Made by a program: the position numbers and the translations under genes
Origin: Callorhinchus milii
Lineage: Eukaryota
Reading direction: 5' to 3'
NCBI RefSeq assembly: GCF_018977255.1
Contig: NW_024704742.1
Location: 36,892,001-36,956,000, forward strand
DNA length: 64,000 nucleotides
Shown: piece after piece, positions 14,990 through 64,000 of the stretch
Layout: the number at the start of each line of letters is the position of its first letter
Position numbering within the stretch: position 1 is the stretch's first letter
The notes under the pieces: model-generated
Told to the model about the DNA's origin: nothing
The model's database searches: none
What the model saw: only the letters and a program-made list of their open reading frames with translations

Positions 14990-15130
14990 TAATAATAATA
15001 ATAATCCTTGCATTTGAAATAGCGCCTTATCATGTCTTTCAGACGTCTCAAAGCGCTTCACAGAATATACTGTAAAGGGAATTGACTGTATATTTTGTGG
15101 CAGAAACCCGGCAGCCAATTGCACACAGCA
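14990..15130 (-). mobile_element. SINE 3' fragment
   Basis: Reverse complement of the shared SINE tail; a similar fragment lies at 14663-14780. Confidence 0.75.
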
Positions 15131-15606
15131 GCACGTGTGAAAGAAAAACGAACAATTTATGGACATCACCAACACTTTTTTATTATTAAATTCAAAGCGA
15201 TCTTTTCAGACACTGAAGTTATCTGAGACCACAAAGCGATGGCGCATAAGTCCTCCCTGTACACTGCAGTTGATTGGTCAGGTCTACCTTACTTGTCTGT
15301 GTGTGTGAAGTAATTAGTATTGCTGTCCTGTGTGAAGGGCCACAGGTTATATTTGGTGAGGCAGCCATACAGATTAAAGGCCGGGGGTTGCTACAGGGGA
15401 GGAGTGTGGTGTTAGTGTCTAACTTGCAATGGAGGAGGGCTGGGGAGGGAGACCAGAAGTGTATTTAATTTAACTGGGCTGCCTCTCAGGCAGAAAGGGT
15501 TTGTCATAGGGATTCCTTGCTGGCCAAGGAACTAATGGTGCTGGAGAAACTATGGACCGGGCACGTTAAAAGTAGTAGAGCAGCTAGACTGGCAGCAGAG
15601 AAGAAC

Positions 15607-15658
15607 ATGGGACTGAGCTGCTTCAAACCGATCAAGAGTGATTCTCATAAGCGTTCAG
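15607..15658 (+). CDS. ARHGAP24: Candidate alternative first coding exon of ARHGAP24 (MGLSCFKPIKSDSHKRS-G)
   Basis: Strong Kozak context aacATGg; 17 codons + 1 nt, then donor CAG|GTAAAC; phase 1 is compatible with the acceptors at 52555 and 60662; G-rich, repeat-free upstream region. Confidence 0.55.
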
Positions 15659-17036
15659 GTAAACACTGTGCAATAACCGACTTAAATAGTGTATCACTGC
15701 CACTTTAGTGAACTTTCATTCGTATAATAGTTACACGGATTTTAAGATAATTCTTAAAAATTCTTAAGATTTTTAAGAATTATTCATCTCAACTTGTCTC
15801 AACCTTTAAATATTGGTCTACTGAAACTGTTCAACATTTTCCCAGATGTGCAGAGGGCTAGAAGTATTGTTAAAGAGTTCTATTTATTTAATCTGAGAGC
15901 AATAATGAAACAAGTAAAACAAAGTCAATGTGTGCGTGTTTTTAAAAGTGAAATGTTTCCCCTATACCATTAGATTTTTAATTCTTTACATTAGACTTTT
16001 AATTATTTTACAAAAAGGGCAGAAATGTTTGGTGACTTGTATATTGTTTATCATTCAATAGAGTACCACTGTAGTCATTAATACATCGGCTTAATAAAGC
16101 ATAATAAGTTCTTAGCTGTGATGTTAACATTTAACTAACTAATTAACTTAAAAGATCGCATGGCACTATTCAAAAAGAGAAGGGAGTTTTTCCTAACCAA
16201 CAGTTCCCCAAAACTTACAATTGGTCATTCACTTCATGACTGTTTGTGGGACATTGCTGTGCACAAATTGGCTTTCACGTACACCTACAAATACATGAGT
16301 CACCACATTTTAATGGCATGGCGCTATTTGAAAAGAGAAGGAAGCTTTTCCTGGTGTCCTGATCATTGACACTGGATTGAAGTGTAAGCCTGGACTGGGA
16401 ACTCAAAAGTTCTAACATGGGGCTTAAACTCCACAACCTTGACTCAGCGGGAAGAGTGCTATCAACCGAGCCAGGCCGAGACTTACGGATGCTTCATTAT
16501 GGTGTTTTTCTGAGGTGTCCATAGATGTGCTATTGCTAAATATTGGGTCAACGTTTGGCACGGATGATAATTCATTTTGAGGAGTTATGGACCTGAGGTC
16601 AGGACTGTAGGAGGGCTGTCTCTTAGGCTCTTTTGTTAAGAATTATGAAGCACATTAACCTTTATATCATTTATATTGTGGAAATCAGAAGCTGGCCCAA
16701 TCTCAGAGGTGGAGCCTTTGTTCTGCACTTAAACCTTCTCTGCTGCTTGGCTATTGAGGCTTTATTTAAAAAGTATGAAAAATATCATTTGGACAAATTT
16801 TAACATTGCTATAAAATAGGAACAAAGCAAAATTGATACTGCAATTTTTCATCATCTCAAAGTTCTGTTCAATCACAAAGGAACTTGATGTTTAACTACA
16901 TCCTTATAATAGAAGTGCAAATAAAATGGAAATAATGAAAGTTTTATGTTATCCCATATTTTAGAAACTGCAACCTAGAATTTCTTTATCATAGACCAGA
17001 AAGGCACGGAACGTAATTCAGAGACTATAGGGACCA

Positions 17037-17192
17037 AACTGTTTGTGGGACATTGCTATGTGCAATTGGCTGCCGCGTTTGCCCGCAAATATACAGTCAA
17101 TTCACTTTGCAGTGTGTTCTGTGAAGCGCTTTGGGACGTCCTCCCGATGTAAAAAAACGCTATATGAAATGCAAGGATTATTATTATTATTA
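17037..17192 (+). mobile_element. 5'-truncated tRNA-SINE (tail portion)
   Basis: Near-identical to the 3' half of 20338-20653; ends in (TTA)n abutting an L2 fragment. Confidence 0.85.
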
Positions 17193-18296
17193 TAGTTGGG
17201 TGTCATCCGCATACATGTGGAAGTTGACCCCATGTCTGCGGATGATGTCACCAAGGGGGAGCATGTAGATATTAAAGAGGAGAGGGCCAAGAACAGAGCC
17301 CTGTGGGACGTCAGATGTGACAGTGCAGGGGCTGGAGGAGAAACCGTTAGAGACAACGAAGTGGAGATGGTGAGAGAGATAGGATCGAACCAGACAAGGG
17401 CAGGTCCGCGAAGATTGAGTAAAGTGGAGAGGCGATGTATGAGGATGGAGTGGTCGACAGTGTCGAAGGCGACAGAGAGGTCGAGGAGGACAAGGAGGCA
17501 GAGGGAGCCCTGATCACAGATGTTCAGAATGTCATTAGTGACTTTGACCAGGACTGTTTCCGTGCTGTAGGCAGCACGGAAGCCGGATTGGAGAGGTTCA
17601 AAGAGGGAATGCCGAGAGAGAAAGGAGCGGATCTGGGAAGCAACGACTCGGTCCAGGAACTTGGAGAGGAATGGGAGGTTAGAGATTGGGTGGTAGCTAG
17701 AGAGGAGGGATGGAGCCAGGGAAGTGGCTGAACGTATCCCCTTGATTTTAGATTCGAGGAAGTCCAGTATCTCTTCACAGGTGGAGTTTGAGGAGAGGAT
17801 GGGCGAGATATGGGAAGGTGGACGGAGGAGGCAGCTTGTGGTGGAAAAGAGAAGCTGGCGGTTGTCCTTTGCCTCCAAGATAACCTTGGAGTAGAGGGAG
17901 GATTTGGCGGAAGCAAGAGCGCAGTGGTAGGTCTTGGTGAGTTGAAGCCAAATCTGCCAATAGACCGTTAGTTTGGATTTGGTCCAGTCGCGTTTGGCAG
18001 CTCGCACTTGTGCCTTGAGGGAACGGAGATGGCTGGTGTACCAGGGAGCTTTACGGGAGTATGAGGCAGTTCGGGAGGTGAGGGGGACAAAGGAGTCCAC
18101 AATGGAGGAGAGGGAGTTGTGGAGAAAGGAGAGTGAGGAGTGGAGATCCGTCAGTGAGGGCCAGAGGTGTAGGAGTTCAGATGACTCCAGGGCAGTGGAG
18201 AGGGAGTGGGAGGAATTTTTTTTCCATGGACGGTATGTAATGGTGGAGGATTGGGAAGGGGGGAGGGGTACTGAGGTACACTGGAGTACAGGTTAG
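17193..18296 (-). mobile_element. L2 LINE ORF2 fragment including the RT domain (frameshifted, internally deleted)
   Basis: APWYT..., [51 protein letters not shown]; a shifted frame gives [11 protein letters not shown] at 17194-17225. Confidence 0.92.
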
Positions 18297-19069
18297 GGGG
18301 TCACTGGCTTTATTTCAAGTTGCCAGTTGAATTAAGCTCGTATCACACAAGCTGGCAATGCAATATTATCCATCAAATCCAGTGCATGTCACAGGATGGC
18401 TTTGACTCGTCTATGGTGACAGAGTTTGTGTGAGGGGGGAGATTTCATACCTCACAATTTTCTCCCTTATAAGCTCTGAATGGCAAAACTACCTCATGAA
18501 TTACAGCAACACCATGTAAATCATCCAAACATCTCCTTTATCTAGCCCGCTCCCCCACACACATATGTTCTTCACTGCAGCTTTCAGCATTCTGACTGCC
18601 TCAATTAGAGGTCCAGGCCTAAAGTTTTATTCCACAATTTTGCAAATGTATCTGAACTCCGTTTCCTTGAGTATGAAGAAAAGTTCCTTGTGGCTGTTTT
18701 CTAAGTTAAAAAAACATCTTGGGTAGTCCTCTACCATAATCAAAGCCTGGCAAAGCACAAATCTTCTTGACATTTTATTAATCTGCTCCAGGCTCCTGCT
18801 CAAGCTCCCTGTACTGTAATTTCAGAAGGAAACAAAAATCCGCTTGAAAGCTGCAAAGCTGCTTAGACAGATGATGACTTGTTTCTGTGATACTGATCTT
18901 CTTCCTCTTTGAGTGAATTTATTTCAGATACCTTGACCCTTGTGACAATGGTGGCCTGTGCACCTGAGATCACTGTGCTGCTTCGAGTGTTTACAGTTTA
19001 CAATCCGTACACATTGAAGTGTGAGGGAGACCATGTGTGAGAGATCATATGTATCCCTTGGTCTATCCG

Positions 19070-19320
19070 CCCAACATTAGCGGACAGGCTTTCAGTCATT
19101 CCCTCCCTCTCCCCCCCAACCCCACCCCCCCCCCACACATACTTTCTAGAACTCTCTCCTTCCTTCCCTCCCTCCATTCAAAGTCTGACTCAAGACGTGC
19201 TGTTTTTACTCTGCTTTTGGTCATCAGTCCCCTCCAGATCCCCTTTGGCTCCCACCCCCAGCTCGGGTTCCCAGTCAGCAGTTTCAAAGGTTTTGAGATT
19301 GCATTTTATGTGAGGATGAT
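19070..19320 (+). mobile_element. Degenerate L2 3' fragment
   Basis: ISGQAFSHS...FKV*LK-like remnants and an L2-type 3' UTR. Confidence 0.55.
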
Positions 19321-20337
19321 TTGATTATTTATAATCTGCATGTTGAAGGATTGTGCGTGGAGAGGGAACCTATAAGAGGGAATCATATGTGAGGAGGTTG
19401 TGCTGGCTGAATTGTTTATAGCTTACAATCCATAGGCATTGAAGGTTCTGTGCAAAGGGACCGTAAGGCACAGCCTTAATTTCAGAAGCGGTTTGGGAGT
19501 GAATAATGGTTTGGTCTGTAGTTTGTTTTCAAAATGTTCTGCCTCCATCCAAGATTCCTGCTAAGTGGTATTGGGCCTCAATTATTTTCCTGAAAGTCAG
19601 AGCCAGCGGTTGAGGTGCTTGGCAGGACGACCGTTGAATTGAGCCAATAATACCCAATTCTCAGCTGAATCTCTGAGGTCAGAAACAGTAAATGGTACCT
19701 AGACATTAGTTATCCTGTAGTTGGGGAGGCAAAATACTTTTTTCGGCATCATGTGGGTGGCCTGTGTCTAGTTGCCGAACGAATCCTCACATTTCCGTAC
19801 TAAGGAATCAAAGTAGAAATTGTCTCATATTAGACCACTTGTTTGTAACACTCTCCAAACTGTCCTGCTTCATATTCACCTCAATATTGAGAAAGAGTTG
19901 TGAACTATATACAGCAACAACAAATTACACTTGTATAGCGCCCTTCACGTCGGAAAGATATCCCAGGGTGCTGGAGTACACTCCTATTATACTGTAGTAC
20001 AGTAGTATACTATTGTACTGTGATTCGGGCAAAGGCCAGGTGCTGTTAGCCTAAGTGGTCTTCCGTGTAAGTTGTGTGCAGTTTTACATCAATGGGAAAT
20101 CAATTATCATTGAGGCTGGCTATGACTTCTGGTTGGTAAGATAGCACAATTAATTTCCCATTTTGCTGAGCTGTAAACAATGTCACGTGGGCAGTGGTAG
20201 GTGGACATGCAGTGATCTACTTGCCTTCTCTGCAGCCTTGATATTCAAGGCCTTTGCTGTCTTTGAGCAAACCAGCTCACCAGTTGTCCTGTGGAGGTTC
20301 CAGATTCCAGGAATTTATGAGGAAGAAATGGATTCTT

Positions 20338-20653
20338 GGAGTCCTGTAGCTCAGTGGTTGAGCACTCGCTTTGCAAGCTAGAGACCTGAGTTCAATTCCA
20401 GGCAGAGGGCGAAACCTTGGGCAAGTTTCCTTACTCCACACGCCTAATAATAATCCCTCCAAAACCAAAAACAATAATAAATTGGTCATTTTCAATCCAC
20501 GACTGTTTGTGGGACATTGCTGTGCGCAATTGGCTGCCGCGTTCGCCCACAAATATACAGTCAATTCACTTTACAGTGTGTTCTGTGAAGCGCTTTGGGA
20601 CGTCCTCCCGACGTGAAAAGCGCTATATCAAATGCAAGGATTATTATTATTAT
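20338..20653 (+). mobile_element. tRNA(Ala)-derived SINE family A, full length, young
   Basis: A box tagctcagtgg, anticodon-like loop tttgcaa (TGC), B box gagttcaattcc, 3' stem-loop gcgctttgggacgtcctcccgacgtgaaaagcgc, (TTA)n; near-identical to the copies at 38290 and 50746. Confidence 0.93.
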
Positions 20654-20999
20654 TCTCTTTGGATTTTGTTGTATCGTATTTATGTTACAGAGAGGTTTCG
20701 GTCAGAGGTGCCTCTACAACACAGTGCGGGTGGATTCTATGGCAACAGAGAAACAACAGTGCATCTACAATCTTACATAGGTCCATTCATATTTGTGATT
20801 TTCATTTCTGTTACACCTTCTCCGATGCTTCAGGTGATTTATTCAGATGATTTATTAGTCAGCTAGGTGCCTGACACAAGAGAAAGCCCATTATCATGCT
20901 TAAGTGTATTTATAATTCCACATGTATATGTCACTTACATATGAATATTTCTGACTGTTGAGAATCTGGAAGGCAATGCATGGTTTGTCCTGGTAGGTT

Positions 21000-21230
21000 T
21001 TAAGTGCAAGTTGGAAAGAGCCAAGGCTTGCAGACCCCAAAGGGGCTTTTTGGAATACCTCTGAAGTTCAACCAGTTAAAAAACACAGTTTCCATTGAAA
21101 GCAGTATCTGGCAAGCTTCCCACTATGTGCCCAGCATCCTACCCATTAGGGCTTTGGCTTGCAATGAGGGAATGTGTGGACCAGTGATGCAGGATGGTCT
21201 GTGTAGACGGGAGGAACACTCAGTTTGAAC
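21000..21230 (-). repeat. Ancient unclassified repeat (copy 2, partial)
   Basis: ccattagggctttggcttgcaa is identical to about 6836-6857; tctggcaagctt matches the reverse complement of about 57010. Confidence 0.6.
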
Positions 21231-23204
21231 TCTGAAGGCCTTCTCTTACCTGTTCAATACTTTCCTGGTACTGACCTACAATATATCTAATAGAACAAAT
21301 ATTTGGAAGGCTCTAAAACCTGATTTTTCTTTCCTTTTTTGTATCTGAATTTAGAGAATTGGCTTCAGACACTGGTAGTATGTATGTCCATCTGTCTGCT
21401 GGTACCGTGAAAGCTTTGTAATTCAGTCCAACTCACCCTCAGGTTACACCCATTGCGTGCCTATTCGACGTGGTTAGGCAATGAATTGTTTTAAAGATAA
21501 GGCAGGTAACAGGATGGTAGAGTGTAGAGTCAAAGGCAACCATTCACAGGACAAAGAAATAGAAATGATTAAAGCTGGCTGCTTAGGAATTTATGTTGAA
21601 CATAATGGGTTGTTTTACTGATTAGGAAGAATGCCAACAAACAGTTCATAAATTTATACTCTCTCCACAGATTAGCCTGTTTATCTTATATCTCATTACT
21701 GTCTCCTTTAGACACTTGCAGACAGACCCTAAAATGGACTGGGGTCAGCACAGTAGCAATCTATCTTTGGTTTTGAGCGGATTATATTCTCAACAGAATT
21801 TAGCCTGTAATGTACCCTTCTCTACTGGTGCCACCCTCTCAGGACACAGGGTTCCTTGCTGAGAGCAGATTGTAAGTTTAAACTGCTGGGCAGATCTCTT
21901 AGTAAAATTATTCTCCTGTGTTGCACCTCCTGTGTGGCAAATGTTCACTCCAGTTAGCTTTCTTGGGTGGCAGCTCTGACTTATGGACAAACAGCCCATA
22001 AACTAAGAATGATGTTGAAAGAAATAATTTTTATAGCATCTATATGTTCAAACCTCTGAAAGTGCTTTACTATTAAGTGTAGTGACTGTTTTTGAAGGGA
22101 AGTGCACAAGCAATTTTGCATTTAGCAAATCCCATAAACAGGCATGATTTTAATGATTGGTTTATCTGGAGGAACACCTTCAATTCAGCGCCCCCAGCCC
22201 CACCCAGTACCCAGTACTGCCTTGACCATATGAATTCAAAGATAAACTATATGAACTATAAGATTAAAAACAGCCTGAATTTGATAATAATAATAATCCT
22301 TGCATTTGATAGACGTCTCACAGTGCTTGATCTGCCATGTGGGAATATACATCCATCAGTTTTTACTTCTTTTTGATAGACTGTCTTTCCTGGGATTCCA
22401 AATTTTATTCAGATGTTTCATTTCAATCCTAATTAAGCTTTTCATTTAGAAAAATCGCTACCAATGAGGAAGATTGGCCACATTGAGTATGATTCAAAGT
22501 GCAAGGTTTGTAAATCGTGCTTTGAATAGTACTTTATTTGGGCTGGCATCTCTTAGGCTAGTTTTAAATCGCATTGTCAGCTCCCCATGCCATACATCAT
22601 TAGCTCTCTAATGGGGCAATTGAGGGCAATCTGTTGCCCAGCCTTTGCCAGCATTACTCTGTACCCATCTGCTAGGTGGTGTGTGAGGGGTGATATGCAT
22701 GCTGATTTGAAAGTGGCACCTTTTTATGTGAAAACATTTGGAGGGAAGTGGGGTGGGGGGAGAGAGAGAAGAAAAATAAGAATACCATGCCTTTTTGCAT
22801 CTTATTCTTGTGTATAAATTCCACAATGATGTGTTCTTGGAGTGATTTACATCATTGTATTGTGTGTTTGCAAGCTACTAAAAATGACCTGCCTTCTTCC
22901 TGTGGGAAAGGCTTGGCCTCCACTTTGTTCCCCTCCCTGATGATCCAGCGGCGACCGTGAAATCACAACCTAAACCTCACTCCCCACCCCTCGATGACAC
23001 AGCACTGTCCAACTGCCCCATTGATCTCTCCACAAAGGTTGCAGTCCATTGCACACCATTTCCTTTTGCACGCTTCTGGCCCTTTGAAGGTACATTTGTC
23101 TCTGGTTGCATCAGGCCATTCCTAACATTAGGCAGCCGCTAGAACAGGCTATAGGAATACTGATATATGTTCACTGCGGCAGGTGAACATACTCTACATT
23201 ATAA

Positions 23205-23410
23205 GAATAATAATCCTTGTATTTTTTAGAGCGCTTTGTATGTTACAAGGACGTCTCAAAGCGTTTCACAGCATTTACTGTGAAGTGGAATGATTGTATT
23301 TGTAGGTGAACTAGGCAGTACAATTGCACACAGCAGTGACCCATAAACAGCCATGAAACAAAGGACTAATTTTATTTGGGGGATTGATGGCGAGGACCCT
23401 GAGAGAAACA
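23205..23410 (-). mobile_element. Deu-type SINE 3' half
   Basis: Reverse complement of the shared tail and the ttcatggctgtttatggg segment. Confidence 0.7.
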
Positions 23411-25589
23411 TTAGAGGATGAGGCTGTAGGACATATGTGCTCTGGTCGAACAGTCAGTGAGGGCAGAGGAATGCTGAAAAAGAGAATGAAGAAACCATAC
23501 TAGCAGAGCTCTCAGTTACATGGTGGTGGTTAATTTGGGCTATTTCTTAATGGGATTTCCATGTCACGCAAGTGAGGATTCCTTCCGGTAACCAGACACA
23601 CATCAGGCTGAGCCGCAGCAACTTTGCTCCAACGGATCTATTTTCAGAGCATAATTCCCACATTTGGATGGGACACAAATCCATTTTCAAGGCATCTTGT
23701 AAAGAATGCCCAAATTATCATTGTTTGGTAAATGAGAAGCTCAGCACAACCACTGAAACTGATCTACATCTATCTCAAATAATAATAACCCTTATGCCTC
23801 CAACTAAAAAAAATGGATCCAGGTTTCCTCATTGTCATTGGAACAATCACCAAAACATGTACATTTGCACTGAGTTTAATATTGAAGCATACATGTTCAT
23901 TTTAAAATAACAGAATCACTGCACTTTATCTCATGCTGGAAAGCTCAGTCATACCTAAGTGCCCATAACTCACACCATCACTGCTTGCTATTCAGAGCTA
24001 CCCATGTGTGTAATAGGTATTGACAGGGGTTGAGAGGAATGTTGGACACAGACCGAGCTACTAAATTCCCTAATGGATTGTTCTGCTCATGAACACCAAA
24101 AAGAAACTGGATTAAAGTTGACTTTGTTTGTAATTAGTTTGTAATTTATAAAAAGCAGCAAGTGTTGTACAGCAACACTGAAGCACTCCAATGACTCCAC
24201 TTCCAAATTAGGGACTTTGGACAATATCAGGAAAATTGATTAACTTAGCAGCTCGGCTGTCAGGTGGAATTGCTGTGATCTGTTCACAGAATCAGAGCAT
24301 GATTCCCAACCAGAGGATCAGTAATTAGAGATCCTATTGCACTATTGAAAAAGAGAAGGGAATTTTTCTTGATATCATGGCCAACAATCCCCAGATAAAA
24401 TTAATCATTCACTTCTTGGCTATTTGTGGGATATTGTACAAATTGTGTGGAACAAACAAGTCCGTTCGAACTTGGCACCATTGGTGCTCCTGGCCTAAGG
24501 CTTGATGTGGTATTTGTATCTTAACAGTTGCAGTTACACCGGGATCATTTTCCACTGAAAATTGAGCCTTGAATGTCCAACCAGCTGAACCCTACCCTGA
24601 CTAGGACAACGTACTAAGGGAGGGAGAAAGGAATGGGAATAACTCAATGAAAAGAGAGTAACAGTTCAGGATGCAACAAACAGAGGCTTTGGTGTGTAAG
24701 CTTTAACTGCTGAACAGTCATCAATAAGACTGGTTAATTTATCAGTTATTCACTGGTCTCTTGTCTTAAGACTCCTCCGCTCAATAGTTTGCAGCTGCTT
24801 TACAATGTAAATAGGAGTTAAATACTCAGCATTCTTGAGAAATTGGCAGATATTCCCATTAGATGGGTTGCTTCAGAATAACAAGTGTAATTCAGCTACC
24901 TTCAGGGTTGAAGTACCCAGGTTGTCCATACTTTGAAGTTAACATCTGTGTAGTTTGGGCTCTATTATATTAATATAGCAATTACGTAGCAACTGATGAG
25001 AGTTCTATTTGGATAGATGGAAATTAGTACAGTCAACATTCATTAGTCAGCTGACAATTATAAAGCAGAGAACATAGTATGGGTTTTTGAGTTCTCTTTT
25101 GCTGTGGATTCTGCACAGTGTAAATGCAGCAACAATCTCACAATACTGTTAATAATGTACTCTGGGACTGTGGGAACATATGCCATGTAACGTGCATTAA
25201 ACAGAGGACCAGCTGAAGTGTACCATTGTGCATGCCTGCTCAAAAATATATTGAATTAAATTGTAGCTTTTTTACTAAGTTAATTAATAACTTGTCTGTG
25301 CCCTCCAATAGGTAGTGTACTGCCTGCCCTCTCTGCTGAGGGATGTATGTGACGTGTGGTCACAGCCTTGGTATTGCTCTTCAGTCTGGGCTCCCGATTC
25401 ATAAGTTTGTACATTGCATCTGTCAGAAAATTGCCAAATGATTCATTTAGGAATTGTGTGAAATTGACAAGATTTTCTGCAAAAGGAAAACGTGCAGTTT
25501 TTACCTTGCGTGCGACAGAGCTGTGTGAGCGAATGCAGGCTGAAGATAACTGAGAGATAATAATAAATAATAATCCTTGCATTTGATAT

Positions 25590-25937
25590 ACAACAACAAC
25601 AACAAGATTGCATTTATAGAGTGGCTTTTACGTCGGGAGGACGTCCCAAGGTGCTGGACAGTTGGGTCGGGACCCGAGCAGGGGGGAAATGGTCAGGGTG
25701 AGGGGAGGGAATGGAGGGAGCGAGGAGGGGGTAGGGGAGGTGAAGGCACGGTTGAAGAGAAAGGTCTTGAGACCGGCCTTGAAGGAGGAAAGGGAGGAGG
25801 CAAGGCGAAGGTACTGGGGGATGGAGTTCCAGAGCATAGGGGCTGAGAGGCTGAAGGCCCGGCCACCGATGGTAGGGCGGTTAGGGAGGGGGGTGTGGAG
25901 CAGACCGGAGCCAGAGGAACGGAGGGTACGAGCAGGT
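25590..25937 (-). mobile_element. L2 LINE 3' fragment nested in a SINE
   Basis: LPARTLRSSGSGLLHTPLPNRPTIGGRAFSLSAPMLWNSIP...FKAGLKTFLF; (TTG)n tail. Confidence 0.9.
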
Positions 25938-26014
25938 AAGTATATATATATATATGTAAGTATATAGCGCCTTATAATGTCATTGAGACGTCTCAAAACG
26001 CTTCACAGAATATA

Positions 26015-26123
26015 CAGGGTGACCAAAAAGTTGTGATATCTATCCTATTATGTAAAAAAACTATTATAATTTCTTTAAGACTTATCGCATTGTAATGGTA
26101 TCACAACTTTTTTGGTCTTCCTG
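26015..26123 (+). mobile_element. 109-bp Tc1/mariner-type MITE with TA target duplication
   Basis: TIRs cagggtgaccaaaaagttgtgata / tatcacaacttttttggtcttcctg, flanked by TA; removing it restores the host SINE sequence. Confidence 0.85.
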
Positions 26124-29100
26124 TACTATAAAGTGAATTGACTGTATGTTTTGTGGGCAAAATGTTTTCACATATTTTAGGAGATGCTTACACATGAATT
26201 CGTACTATCTGAATATTAGATATAGCTGGTACTCTTAACTGGCTCAAGAGGCTTTGTAGGTGCAAAAGTTGTGGTGTGCCATTGTCACTTAACAGATTAA
26301 TAGCCTCACAGCTCATCCCATTTCACAATGTCTCGATTGCTATTTTGCATAGCTCACGCCTACTCCAGAGCTGCCTCCCACCTACTCTTGCCACCAACAC
26401 CCCCCTCCCAACCACCTTTCCCCATTATCATCTCAGCTTCATTCAGTCAGGGGAGAAGCAAGGTGGAGCTCAGCTCACCTTGTTGTGACCTTGTGGCTGG
26501 CATTTGGTACCTGTTTTCCCAGAGCAGTGTGGTAGGTAGGCAGTTTCCCATTCCTCTCTGATAGAGTCATGGGAGAAACTGCAGAAGAAATAGCCTACAC
26601 CAGATGTGTAGCTGTGTAAAGCAAATTCAAAACAACTGCAGCTGCTGACTCTCATGGTGGATGCTGCCCCATGCAAATGGATTACATTTGTGTACAAGGT
26701 GAGAAGCAAGCCCTTGCTGCCTTTTTTTCAAATCAGAAAACATGCTCTGACTACCAACTTCACGTGATGCCTTTCAATAGTTTAGTGAAATGAAGCAACT
26801 TAGCTGTAAAGCACAGCTGCTCTGCCATTTCGATTCAGAATGGTATGACATCGATTGTGTTCAATAGCCGCTGTAGCAATTAATGAAATTTAGTCATTGA
26901 TTTGTGCTTCAGTTCTTAAATAACCGTTTCAAGGGCCATTAACTGTTTTATCGCTAGTGTTTTCTTAACGCTGACATTTGCCATGACGAGAGCTGGGCTG
27001 CTGTTTATTGGTAAAGAATGCATTAGAAAAATCATCACACAGAGAAAAAAAAACATCTGCTTTCTGTTGTAATGCAGTTGGAATGATTTCAGTTTGTTTC
27101 AGCTGTTTCCAGTGAGGTTCTGGCAGTTTTGTTGATTGGCTGTCACTTATGTCCGCATCTCTTGGTCATAGTTTATTCAAACGTTTGCGGGGGAGTTTTT
27201 CCATGAGAAATTCCAGTTATGGTAACTGATTTGGGGGTGATCAAGATGGGGAAAACACAGATGATAACAGCAGGTATAAAGAAAGCCAGAGATGCACTGC
27301 CACATTTGAATCCCTTATTAAATATAGTGAATGGTCTAAAATAGCTACTAGAAAGATCTCCATGTCCCTCAGAGTGCTGGGTAGAGGAGGGGTGTTTTAG
27401 CACAGTCCGAGCAATGAAGTGGTAGTTTTAAACACATCTGCTTTTCTAATTACCACGGAAGACAAGATAAAAGCTGACCTGTTGTTTTAGCTCCAGTAAT
27501 CCTTTCATCCAAATCGTTTTGTGCCATTTTCACGTCATGCGCATAGAGAGAGAGGACAGAGATTCGGTATGTTTCTTGCCTTTGCTAACTTTATTTCAAG
27601 ACCTGCAGTACAGTGTCTCTGCTTTTGTACATTATCTATTCAGCTCCTCGCTTCATGGAGTGGGGTGGAGAATCAGCAAGTACTGTATTCTTTTGGACAT
27701 TACTAAACTTGTAATGGTAATATTGGCCTGTATGGGGCCAATATAAGTAATCAGACTAAAGCGGATTTAACTACAATGAAAGTGTGACATTTGACTTGTG
27801 CTTCTAACCACTGAGACTGCTTACGCAACATATCCACTTGACATTAAATACACTTGATGTCTTCCAAACCTTTTGTGAGGGTCTTAATGCCAGTCTCCAA
27901 TGTAATTATGTGGATCGGTTATCAAAGACCAGATCAAATGAAGTTTGATGCAGTGACAAAGATCAAACACTAGCCTGAAGCAGTTAAATACAGAGAATTG
28001 TCACTGCTGTGGCTGCTTTACCTTGTTTACTTGATCACTGTCAATACTGTGTGGAATATAAAGCCTTCATTCAATGTGAATTTCAGTAGAAAGTGTGCCT
28101 CAAAGAATATATGGCAATATAAATGGATCGTAACAACTAAATATTTCCAATTCAATGTGTATCTTTCATCAGAGGATTATGTCTAACTCGAGCGGAATAG
28201 CATGTGTCGTGTTATTGTCATTGTCATTGTGCAGAGTGTATGTGTTTATGTACATAATGCGGAGGTCTAAAGTGTGACATTCAAAACTGAATTTGTTATC
28301 TTAATATATTGTTTTTTAGATGCTTGTTTACAGAATGCAGGGAAATTATCAGAAGCACTTTGAGACATCCTCCTGACCTGAAAGGCGCTGTATCAAATAG
28401 GTTATTATTATTTTTATTTACACATAATACTTATGTTTATTAAAAATAATAATGACAAAATTGGGTTCAGATATATCAATCTTTCCTATCACTGTTTGCC
28501 CGCCAGACCTTTTTATTCAGCTGTCAACTTGGAATTTATGATTTGCCAGCCAGAAACCTCGCAATTAACAAAACAAATCCAAAGTGGGAATGTCACATTT
28601 TAACCACCATTATCTGGACAATGTGTTGATGCTGTGATACAGTTCATTGAGATACATATTATTTGGCAATGTCCCTCAGAATAAGAGGTAACATGTGGAA
28701 CTTACTGGGCACTGTAGAGGCTATAACTCTGTATTTCCAGCTACTGAATGATATTGAATGAGAATATCATCTTTTCTACTATAGTATCCTATCTGTCTAG
28801 AAAATTAGCCCTGACTAACATTTTAACATTTTACTGCAGGGGTGAGGGTGGGTAGGGGAGGTGTATATTCTGTGCCAAGAGTGGTTAATGTGTTCAAATC
28901 TCTGAAAACCAGGTCTAAATGGATGCTATTTTGGAATCAACTTAAACACAGGGTTGACAAGGTGCTCGAAAGAGAAAAGTGCAGTGTAAATGACGCACAG
29001 TGGAACAACATCTTGGGGCCTGAAAAAGAAGGATTCCTCCAGGGAAATTCCTGTCGTCACACCAACTCATGGGAACTCTGCTTCAAGGCATTATTTTCGC

Positions 29101-34580: not shown

Positions 34581-34801
34581 CAAAAAGACACAAAATACTG
34601 CAGATGCTGGAAATTTGAAAACAAAAACAGAAGTCGCTGGGAGCACTCAGCAGGACAGGCAGCATCTATGGGGAAAGGAAAGTGAGTCAACGTGAATGTT
34701 CTGACGAAGTGTCGTGGACCCGAAACATTGACTCACTTTCCTTTCTCCATAGATGCTGCCTGACCTGCTGAGTGTTCCCAGCGACTTTTGTTTTTGTTTT
34801 T
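34581..34801 (+). mobile_element. Penelope-like palindromic element with minimal hammerhead ribozyme core, 13-bp TSD
   Basis: ~75-bp inverted arms (34618-34692 / 34725-34800); CTGACGA(34701)-stem-GAAA(34722); flanking direct repeat ttaatcttgtatc at 34568-34580 and 34802-34814. Confidence 0.8.
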
Positions 34802-38289: not shown

Positions 38290-38604
38290 AGCTCAGTGGT
38301 TAGAGCACTCGCTTTGCAAGCGAGAGACCTGGTTCAATTCCAGGCAGAGGGCGAAACCTTGGGCAAGTTTCCTTACTCCACACAGAGCCTAATAATAATC
38401 CCTCCAAAACTAAAAACAATAATTAAATTGGTCATTTTCAATCTACGACTGTTTGTGGGACATTGCTGTGCGCAATTGGCTGCCGCGTCCGCCCACAATT
38501 ATACAGTCAATTCACTTTACAGTGTGTTCTGTGAAGCGCTTTGGGACGTCCTCCCGACGTGAAAAGCGCTATATCAAATGCAAGGATTATTATTATTATT
38601 ATTA
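38290..38604 (+). mobile_element. tRNA-SINE family A, young
   Basis: Near-identical to 50746-51060. Confidence 0.92.
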
Positions 38605-50745: not shown

Positions 50746-51060
50746 GGAGTCCTGTAGCTCAGTGGTTAGAGCACTCGCTTTGCAAGCGAGAGACCTGAGT
50801 TCAATTCCAGGCAGAGGGCGAAACCTTGGGCAAGTTTCCTTACTCCACACAGAGCCTAATAATAATCCCTCCAAAACCAAAAACAATAATAAAAAAATTG
50901 GCATTTTCAATCTACGACTGTTTGTGGGACATTGCTGTGCGCAATTGGCTGCCGCGTTCGCCCACAAATTTACAGTCAATTCACTTTACAGTGTGTTCTG
51001 TGAAGCGCTTTGGGACGTCCTTCCGACGTGAAAAGCGCTATATCAAATGCAAGGATTATT
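50746..51060 (+). mobile_element. tRNA-SINE family A, full length, young
   Basis: Intact anticodon-like arm ctcgc-tttgcaa-gcgag, A/B boxes and 3' stem-loop. Confidence 0.93.
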
Positions 51061-51706
51061 AAGCTGAAGGATGTCCTGCTGAACACAAGTCCTGAGAGAA
51101 TAGAAAGTGCTGAGAATGCTTTTCAAAAGTAGCTAGGTGTAGAGTTTCTATAAGGCTTGTTGGTGCTCAGGACCCACGTGATTAACGCCCCTGGCCCCCA
51201 CCCCGACCCATCCACCTGCAGTAAATGTATGGCTTACAAAATCAAAATCCAAGAAAATATTTCTTTAATTACCTTCTTCACAGAAGATAAAATGCGTGAA
51301 CATGCGTGCCAAGGTCAGAACACTCAGCACAGTGAGATTATTTTTGTTGGAGAGAACGGTGAAGCTCTCGTCAGAGTCAGTGAACTGAATTGAGTTGAGG
51401 TTTAATTTGCACAGTGAGACGCACAGGAACAGGTCATGCAGTTTTTTTTTTGCACAACGAACAGCGAGTCTCAGTGAAAAAGTTACGATTTGGCGAGTAC
51501 AGCATGTATGGAAAGAGAGAGCAGTTCTTTACCTCAAGCACGGCAGCCGTGGTGGATCTCTGCCAAAAGGCTCAGCCATCCATGCAAGTTTCCCATCCCT
51601 TCATAGCTGCCTAGGTTTCTTAGACAAATAATAATGTACACAGATTATGGAGTGTTATAAGATTTATTTAAACACATTTTGAAATTACAGTACTTGTTTT
51701 TAGGCA

Positions 51707-52554: not shown

Positions 52555-52677
52555 GTGGAGATCGTGATCGGATGACTGCCAATCATGAGACATACCTCCT
52601 CATGGCCAGTACTCAGAATGATATGGAAGACTGGGTGAAGACTATTCGCAGAGTGATATGGGCTCCCTTTGGTGGAG
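52555..52677 (+). CDS. ARHGAP24: ARHGAP24 (FilGAP) internal exon, C-terminal part of the PH domain
   Basis: Acceptor tgtcttgtag|, donor |gtaaga, 123 nt, phase 1-1; encodes (G)[40 protein letters not shown], nearly identical to recalled human ARHGAP24. Confidence 0.95.
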
Positions 52678-58529: not shown

Positions 58530-58641
58530 ATGCCTGAGAATAAGAATATCATATTCTGCACTACCAGTGCTTTAACATACCCCACTTTCCTCCCTAAAAC
58601 CACCTACAGGAAAATTAAGCGATGCTTCAGCTTCAGAAAAG
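58530..58641 (+). CDS. ARHGAP24: ARHGAP24 alternative first coding exon (PH-less p73RhoGAP-type isoform)
   Basis: MPENKNIIFCTTSALTYPTFLPKTTYRKIKRCFSFRK + G|GTAAGT consensus donor, phase 1; matches the recalled human isoform N-terminus MPE...PFIPKTTYRRIKRCFSFRK-GIFGQ. Confidence 0.88.
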
Positions 58642-60661: not shown

Positions 60662-60869
60662 GTATCTTTGGCCAGAGGCTGGAAGACACTGTACGGTACG
60701 AGCGTAGGTATGGTACTCGCATGGCACCAATGCTTGTGGAGCAGTGTGTAGACTTCATCCGCCAGAGAGGGCTGAAGGAAGAGGGTCTCTTTCGACTACC
60801 CGGTCAAGCGAATCTGGTCAAGGAGTTACAGGAGGCCTTTGACTGCGGTGAGAAGCCGTTATTTGACAG
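60662..60869 (+). CDS. ARHGAP24: ARHGAP24 exon, start of the RhoGAP domain including the arginine finger
   Basis: Acceptor aatag|, donor |gtaagg, 208 nt; (G)[68 protein letters not shown]. Confidence 0.97.
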
Positions 60870-62655: not shown

Positions 62656-63861
62656 GTGATGCACCTAATGCAGTGCTCAACAGGAAAATGACATGACAGC
62701 TAGCCATGAATATTCTGATGGTCATTAATATCTATGCATTCTGGCTAAAGTGTACATAATGTCCATTGCCAAGGTAACATCTTGTAATGTACTTTCAGAC
62801 TGACATTTGCAAACGCTCTAAATCTGATCTGAACCTTCTTTGGATCAGTTTTGTTGCCTGTGAAGGGTGCTGAAAGAGACCAAACTATATCTTTCCAGTT
62901 GACTTGTGCAGGTAAACCCAGACCACTGTATCCAATTATAAGTCCATTGGCAGTGGTGACTGTGTCGCCGTGACACATGCACAGTGTGCTGCCATGCCCC
63001 AAGACACAATGTACTGTTCAGTCAAGATTTCCAATGGTTTATATCACAGTTAATCATATCCATAGTGCAGAGCCCTTACTAAAATTCAGCCCACTCTGAG
63101 TTAAACATAGCTCCAAGCAGACCTGCTTTGACCCAAACTCAAACCAGACTGATTTCAGCAAAGAACAGTTCAAGCGCAGCAAGAGAGATGCTGTGCAAGA
63201 GCATTAGTTTGCTGATGCTTGAAACTATTCCTGTCATAGTCTGAAAAATGGTTCTGAGTGTGGCATCATGTGATTCATTGCACATATGCATCAGATTGGA
63301 TTAAACAAGCCGCAGATTCTAATGATTACAATCCTTGCTCTCCTAATGCGTATTTCTGACTGTCTCTAACAACATTTCACTGCTCCACTATAAGATTATG
63401 GCTTAGCTAATGTATAAACCCTCCCGTCACACATTGTTAAGCAAGTTTTCTTAAGTTAATAAGGCATCTTTGATGCTGATTTCTATTTCTCATTTAACCT
63501 ATTGTGTCCCTTATGGGGCACCTCACTAAGAAGGATGGCAAGGCCATATAGAGGGTGCACAGGAGATTCACGGGGATGATCCCATAGAGGAGATTGTGTA
63601 GTGGTAATGTTAGACAAGAAAACCCATGGATTCAAATCTCGCTATGGCAGTTGTGTAATTTAAATTAAACAAAATTGGTAATTTGAGCTTCCAGCAGTTT
63701 TTACAACAATAATGCTGTATTATTGTAAAAACTTAATTGGTTCACTAATGCCATTCGGGGAAGAACATTGTCTGTACACAAAATATTTTTGTTCTCAAAA
63801 TATACGGTCAATTCACTACAGTGTAATCTTTGAAGCACTTTGAGACATCTCAAGGATGTGA

Positions 63862-64000
63862 TAATAATAATAATAATCCTTGCATTTGATATAGCGCTTT
63901 TCATGTCGGGAGGACGTCCCAAAGCGCTTCACAGAATAAACTGTAAAGTGAATTGACTGTATATTTGTGGGCAAACGCGGCAGCCAATTGCGCACAGCAA
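63862..64000 (-). mobile_element. tRNA-SINE 3' half, truncated by the window end
   Basis: Reverse complement of the family A tail with (TTA)n. Confidence 0.9.

Follow-up and report, generated by a model that had tools for sequence, protein, structure and literature searches.

An alternative first exon of arhgap24, with its coding part at 15607..15658 on the + strand, is very likely a real exon of the chimaera Callorhinchus milii. It comprises the 17 codons MGLSCFKPIKSDSHKRS plus 1 nucleotide, ends in phase 1, and has orthologous N-termini in two bamboo sharks of the genus Chiloscyllium. Judged by this comparison, the exon is very likely older than the split between sharks and chimaeras. That it predates the split and carries a fatty-acylation signal in its residues 1–9 is the reading we favor, with slightly more belief than doubt. 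What is new is the copy in the chimaera, the age that this gives the exon, and the pattern of N-terminal conservation; ARHGAP24 itself, its PH-truncated isoforms and acylation via alternative N-termini are already known.

Exon anatomy and conservation

The window, i.e. the whole stretch of 64,000 nucleotides analyzed here, is identified by its exons as C. milii arhgap24, from within the large intron between the two parts of the PH domain through the start of the RhoGAP region, because the exons at 52555, 58530 and 60662 are identical to C. milii proteins and the start at 26671 equals that of XP_007895145.1. The upstream PH exons and the full-length start lie outside the window. The shared exon at 52555..52677 (+), which offers the acceptor for the 15658 donor, encodes the final third of the PH domain, includes an internal start at 52572, and matches the full-length C. 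milii protein (P0121) at 40/40 residues and the shark models at 39/40. The common exon toward the RhoGAP domain, at 60662..60869 (+), is identical to P0121 at 68/68 residues. These two identities, together with the Pfam RhoGAP domain found in the isoforms, assign the gene to ARHGAP24/FilGAP, and the 52555 exon used as a query retrieved ARHGAP24 proteins (120 of 682 matches listed).

The start codon of the 15607 exon (15607–15609, +) reads aagaacATGg in its context, with a purine at −3 and a G at +4. The 5′ splice donor GTAAAC at 15659..15664 (+) follows nt 15658 as CAG/GTAAAC and agrees with the consensus CAG/GTAAGT at 7/9 positions, while the gene's four protein-supported donors in the window agree at 6–8/9. 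A scripted join of 15658 to 52555–52677 and then to 60662–60869 keeps the frame open and continues into ARHGAP24 sequence. Since the 52555 exon is 123 nt long, skipping it and splicing 15658 directly to 60662 would preserve the frame as well. The ATG with its Kozak context, the peptide, the phase-1 donor and the in-frame splice to 52555 were all found as the sequence-only reading had described them. Its description of a purine/G-rich and unique region upstream of 15607 agrees with the counts: G amounts to 31–38 per 100 nt at 15300–15599 versus 10–22 in the seven remaining 100-nt bins between 15000 and 15999, and of at least 60 repeat families, the 20 largest were compared and do not overlap positions 15135–15990. 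On the + strand of positions 1–52554, 35 starts have the form ATG-GG with at least 8 codons; a purine at −3 and a phase-1 donor-like site accompany 8 of the 35, and among these 8 only the start at 15607 has a Cys among residues 3–7. The decisive control for chance is the comparison between species.

Two shark proteins begin with the counterpart of this exon. XP_043551974.1 of Chiloscyllium plagiosum (isoform X2, P0255) starts with MGLSCFKSIQIDPQKCQ and passes directly into the shared exon, and XP_072451570.1 of C. punctatum (isoform X4, P0262) does so after MGLSCFKPIQIDPQKCQ; their identities to MGLSCFKPIKSDSHKRS are 10/17 and 11/17, respectively. Both were found among the 15 of 77 members listed of the main shark/ray cluster, and both are automated RefSeq predictions with no function assigned. 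Such models usually rest on aligned transcripts. In an ungapped six-frame scan of the window, the two queries had their best match at 15607, scoring 48 (C. plagiosum) and 56 (C. punctatum) with a runner-up of 26, and shuffled queries reached the true score in 1/300 and 0/300 cases, respectively. First-exon length and junction are the same in the sharks as in the window. Residues 1–7, as well as residue 9, are invariant in 3/3 sequences (the window and the two Chiloscyllium), whereas residues 10–17 differ: identity over residues 1–9 is 8–9/9 (9/9 in C. punctatum) versus 2/8 over residues 10–17, with Fisher p values of 0.015 and 0.002 for a boundary picked after looking.

Chimaeras and sharks separated about 400 million years ago, so the exon has held on to its start codon, length, phase and donor for that long. 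A lack of conservation in orthologues had been named beforehand as grounds for refuting the exon, and the outcome was in its favor, two Chiloscyllium models carrying the 17-residue N-terminus. The exon had also been called hidden. This holds for C. milii, in which the N-terminus is absent from the 7 ARHGAP24 records examined, but the exon is already present in the automated annotation of the bamboo sharks. Only 2/42 named cartilaginous-fish ARHGAP24 proteins start in the 15607 manner, compared with 9 of the 26671 type and 10 of the 58530 type, and this frequency hints at expression that is low or confined to few tissues or stages. The two carriers belong to one genus; the independent lineages with the exon number two.

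Upstream region and other first exons of the locus

An AT-rich element at 15461..15493 (+) can be read as a weak box of the TATA type that would place the start near 15490, or as a branch point followed by a 3′ splice site; it is ambiguous and does not exceed chance. A branch-point-like word overlaps the TATA-like word at 15461. Two AGs lie in the element four bases apart, at 15488–9 and 15492–3, with 11–12 pyrimidines in 18 positions. Use of the AG at 15492–3 as an acceptor would give a 165-nt in-frame cassette, 15494–15658, ending at the 15658 donor. The gtatttaa at 15461 had been put forward as a promoter sign, but it is a weak one: the word is common (the window's + strand has 10 copies of TATTTAA and 36 of TATA[AT]A[AT]), it overlaps the possible 3′ splice site, and by itself it is no evidence.

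The reading frame of the 15607 exon is open from 15469. Two ATGs in front of the exon's start were missing from its first description. One, at 15535..15537 (+), is in frame and has the less favorable context (C at −3); starting there would lengthen the N-terminus by 24 residues, with Gly2 buried. The other, in a strong context, opens an out-of-frame uORF of 5 codons at 15552..15569 (+) that ends 37 nt before the 15607 ATG. The upstream in-frame ATG and the strong uORF could lower the amount of the Gly2-start product. A protein search with the 41-residue frame 15535–15657, covering cluster representatives and missing the shark proteins, gave 1 candidate and none at E≤10; a further search of representatives, which missed the shark proteins too, gave 4 matches that were unrelated by inspection.

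The sequence-only reading had counted the 15607 exon as a third start, which is too low. At least four coding N-termini are found (full-length, 15607, 26671 and 58530), in addition to the start inside the shared exon. The alternative first coding exon at 26671..26698 (+) has 9 codons with a second ATG at 26677, ends in phase 1, and encodes exactly the N-terminus of C. milii XP_007895145.1. Sharks, rays, gar, bichir, sturgeon and teleosts have related starts of 7 residues. In the 26671 exon the Cys is not conserved and is lost in the ray and bony-fish orthologues. The p73RhoGAP-type first exon at 58530..58641 (+), which is spliced to 60662, has 37 codons and a basic, Cys-bearing end; it is identical at 37/37 residues to a C. 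milii protein (P0122) and at 34–36/37 in three elasmobranchs. The basic stretch at its end includes Cys-Phe in 32/32 such exons compared, from rays to one primate, and a Cys-Phe pair is common to this exon and the 15607 exon. Going by its setting, the Cys-Phe of the p73-type exon is a second candidate palmitoylation site. This side result may weigh more for human biology, and a lipid-anchored FilGAP form would point to the Cys of the human p73RhoGAP N-terminus.

Other lineages have short first exons of their own spliced onto the same acceptor of the shared exon. These encode 24–25 residues in ray-finned fishes, 10 residues in frogs, and 17 residues with two Cys in notothenioid fishes. The intron splitting the PH domain seems to gain first exons repeatedly. 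Short interspersed repeats are present in many copies throughout the window (e.g. 20467–20654, 38413–38600, 50882–51069 and 63856–64000), some of them 92–96% alike, and they are very abundant in presumed-RNA contig sets. An inverted repeat at 34618–34800 has 76-nt arms that are 93% complementary, separated by a spacer of 31 nt.

Beyond the sharks, none of the other ARHGAP24 N-termini resembles the 15607 peptide among the 120 of 682 and 120 of 999 matches listed, the best other score being 24 versus 48–56. An orthologue in bony vertebrates was not found in a thin sampling that includes 3 named mammalian proteins and no ARHGAP22 or ARHGAP25. The reach of the finding is limited because the exon is seen only in cartilaginous fishes. 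A degenerate DNA pattern of the exon, run against metagenome contigs, gave 31 matches that were discarded as chance, 31/31 being devoid of donor or flank similarity. Residues 1–60 of XP_072451570.1 retrieved one low-score ARHGAP24 cluster from the ESM Atlas, which was uninformative. RNA data gave no listed carrier of 15200–16000, which speaks neither for nor against expression. Four presumed-RNA contig sets yielded repeats and unspliced pieces on 15000–27200; even the annotated 26671 exon was not spliced in them, so these sets have no power. That exon is crossed by one unspliced contig in one set, and two sets have no cover around 15407–15813. A rise in depth to 19.2 in the bin 15407–15813 was rejected as a sign of expression, for it comes entirely from a single stretch of 22 letters in a contig derived from a repeat (355.6 × 22 / 407 = 19.2). 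No paper on a lipid-anchored ARHGAP24 isoform was found among the open-literature titles listed.

PH-domain loss and proposed fatty acylation

FilGAP shuts off Rac at membranes, and its location decides cell spreading and migration. The shared exon starts at residue 90 of full-length C. milii ARHGAP24 (P0121), in which the Pfam PH domain spans residues 20–124, and hence any exon spliced onto the shared exon drops about two-thirds of the PH domain. An intronic promoter and a splice from 15658 to 52555 would give a protein of about 679 residues, which would lack PH residues 20–89 and keep the RhoGAP domain and the C-terminal part. Pfam detects PH in full-length P0121, and in C. punctatum XP_072451570.1 it detects RhoGAP alone. 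For human FilGAP, the available text of PMC10709582 describes PIP3-dependent membrane localisation that requires the PH domain, and Arg39 lies in the part removed here. PH-truncated human FilGAP isoforms exist and are active in human cells, as described in the accessible parts of PMC10709582 and PMC4049857. According to the same parts of these sources, alternative 5′ ends likewise take away some or all of the PH domain, and PIP3 binding along with it, in human FilGAP isoform 3 (residues 96–748), in p73RhoGAP/RC-GAP72 and in ARHGAP22 p68RacGAP. A Gly2/Cys5 tag is not described for the human PH-truncated forms in those portions of PMC10709582 and PMC4049857, whereas the 15607 exon has one; the terms 'myristoyl' and 'palmitoyl' have 0 occurrences in PMC10709582. 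The proposal that the exon swaps PH membrane targeting for acylation holds in its first half, most of the PH domain being removed and the Pfam PH lost in the C. punctatum model, but the acylation is not established.

In the mechanism proposed, Cys5 would be S-palmitoylated amid the hydrophobic Leu3, Phe6 and Ile9 and the basic Lys7, with or without N-myristoylation of Gly2, and the acylated Rac GAP would reach membranes without PIP3. The pattern of N-terminal S-palmitoylation is a conserved Cys close to the N-terminus with hydrophobic and basic neighbors; we know of no strict consensus for this modification. In the window and the two Chiloscyllium sequences, the Met-Gly start and Lys7 are each kept in 3/3, with no acidic residue at positions 6–7, and Cys5, Phe6 and Lys7, invariant in 3/3, fit the palmitoylated pattern. 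An acylation signal is favored because the conservation is confined to residues 1–9, the part read by N-terminal acylating enzymes, with Gly2, Cys5 and Lys7 kept. Given that the exon is real, acylation of some kind is moderately probable, with myristate plus palmitate and palmitate alone sharing this about evenly. Our best guess is palmitoylation of Cys5, with or without myristate.

N-myristoylation of the 15607 peptide is doubtful, as its Leu3 and Phe6 do not conform to the expectation of Ser/Thr6 or of a small or amide residue at position 3. Lys7 is typical of myristoylated starts (available text of PMC12775124), and residue 3 acts as a facilitator when Ser6/Thr6 is missing, by the rule as cited in the accessible part of PMC4736023. 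For reference, 75 sites mapped by mass spectrometry in human (HeLa) cells (PMC10696250, supplement mmc2) were tallied by eye. Residue 6 is Ser in 53 of the mapped sites, Thr in 3 and another residue in 19. Neither an aromatic residue 6 nor the combination of Leu3 and Phe6 occurs (0/75 each); Leu3 is present in 4/75, all 4 with Ser6, and residue 3 of the 19 sites lacking Ser/Thr6 is Asn (10), Ala (4), Gln (2), Cys (2) or Gly (1). Leu, Ile, Val and Met do occur at residue 6 in these 75 sites, which are a sample of abundant substrates, and since large aliphatics are tolerated there, Phe6 is not excluded. The available portions of PMC4550359, PMC8478909 and bioRxiv 2021.06.22.449375 do not deal with a Phe in position 6. 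The conservation of Gly2 may reflect no more than the need for a G at +4 in the start context. The claim of dual acylation from Gly2, a nearby Cys and Lys7 is supported by the invariance of Gly2, Cys5 and Lys7 in 3/3, but is weakened by a Leu3 that is unfavorable without Ser6 and by the 0/75 sites alike.

Isoform-specific acylation by alternative N-termini is known from ABL1 1b, PDE2A3 and PSD-95 alpha, in which promoter choice decides the lipid anchor. It also occurs at the N-terminus of NADH-cytochrome b5 reductase (accessible text of PMC2289487). Lipidation was found by experiment in these four proteins, whereas in the 15607 exon it is predicted. By analogy, the closest tested counterpart of the 15607 tag is the sperm hexokinase HK1S (MGQICQ), in which an alternative N-terminus likewise replaces a targeting domain with a tag that has Gly2 and Cys5 but no Ser6. 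HK1S is myristoylated, and Gly2 and Cys5 are needed for its targeting to the plasma membrane, which is lost in C5 mutants (PMC4736023, part available). The two genes are unrelated, and HK1S has a Gln3 found to be necessary (same part of PMC4736023), whereas the 15607 exon has Leu3 and Phe6.

Alternatively, the exon may be real and translated with its N-terminus left unlipidated, serving as an N-acetylated tag or a small protein-binding motif, with the protein placed by filamin A or other partners like PH-truncated FilGAP. Such a peptide would suit the position of Leu3 and Phe6 outside all 75 mapped sites, the several short first exons of the locus without an acylation look, the nonconserved Cys of the 26671 exon, and the function of PH-less isoforms in human cells (in the parts available of PMC10709582 and PMC4049857). 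Nevertheless, the invariance of Gly2, Cys5 and Lys7 while residues 10–17 drift is the pattern expected of an acylation signal, and HK1S shows that nonconsensus starts can be acylated (accessible part of PMC4736023). We consider the unlipidated N-terminus somewhat unlikely.

The exon could also be used in C. milii mostly without the Gly2 start, through the ATG at 15535, through the uORF at 15552 leading on to the start at 52572, or through a 3′ splice site at 15489/15493. This is quite improbable: both shark models begin at Met-Gly, the context of the 15607 start is the stronger, and the 41-residue frame 15535–15657 is without relatives among cluster representatives, in a search that missed the shark proteins. 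The open frame from 15469, the presence of both upstream ATGs, and the AG, pyrimidines and branch-like word at the 'TATA' are what speak for it. Still less credible is that the stretch in C. milii is what remains of an old exon fallen silent, or that it matches by chance within the intron. The 7 C. milii records lacking the exon would be expected in that case, as would the 2/8 identity of residues 10–17, set against 34–36/37 for the 58530 exon in elasmobranchs. However, the shuffles exclude a chance match; no damage is seen in the start codon, its context, the length, the phase or the donor, residues 1–9 match C. punctatum at 9/9, and long neutral decay would probably not have spared the start, length, phase and donor. 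An old exon with an acylation signal in residues 1–9 is the reading we keep. The earlier interpretation as a whole stands as far as a real, PH-removing alternative first exon of ARHGAP24 is concerned, but its dual acylation is not established.

Implications for FilGAP

The practical gain now lies in the annotation of the chimaera genome and in an indication that the models of the two bamboo sharks are more than noise. A wider proposal, which we regard as unlikely, is that the FilGAP locus is an old switchboard set by promoters, on which a PIP3-gated PH form stands opposite forms that are anchored by lipids and independent of PIP3; the product of the 15607 exon would take up myristate in spite of Leu3 and Phe6 and palmitate at Cys5, and the p73-type Cys-Phe would be a second palmitoylation signal. 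If true, this would widen the substrate rule of N-myristoyltransferase, and the 15607 peptide would be a natural test of the disputed residue-3/residue-6 rule of myristoylation. The overlooked palmitoylation signal of the p73 type would then bear on the isoforms of human endothelium and glioma. A RhoGAP would join the genes whose lipidation is set by promoter choice, and a FilGAP anchored by fatty acids would, unlike the full-length form, inhibit Rac independently of PI3-kinase.
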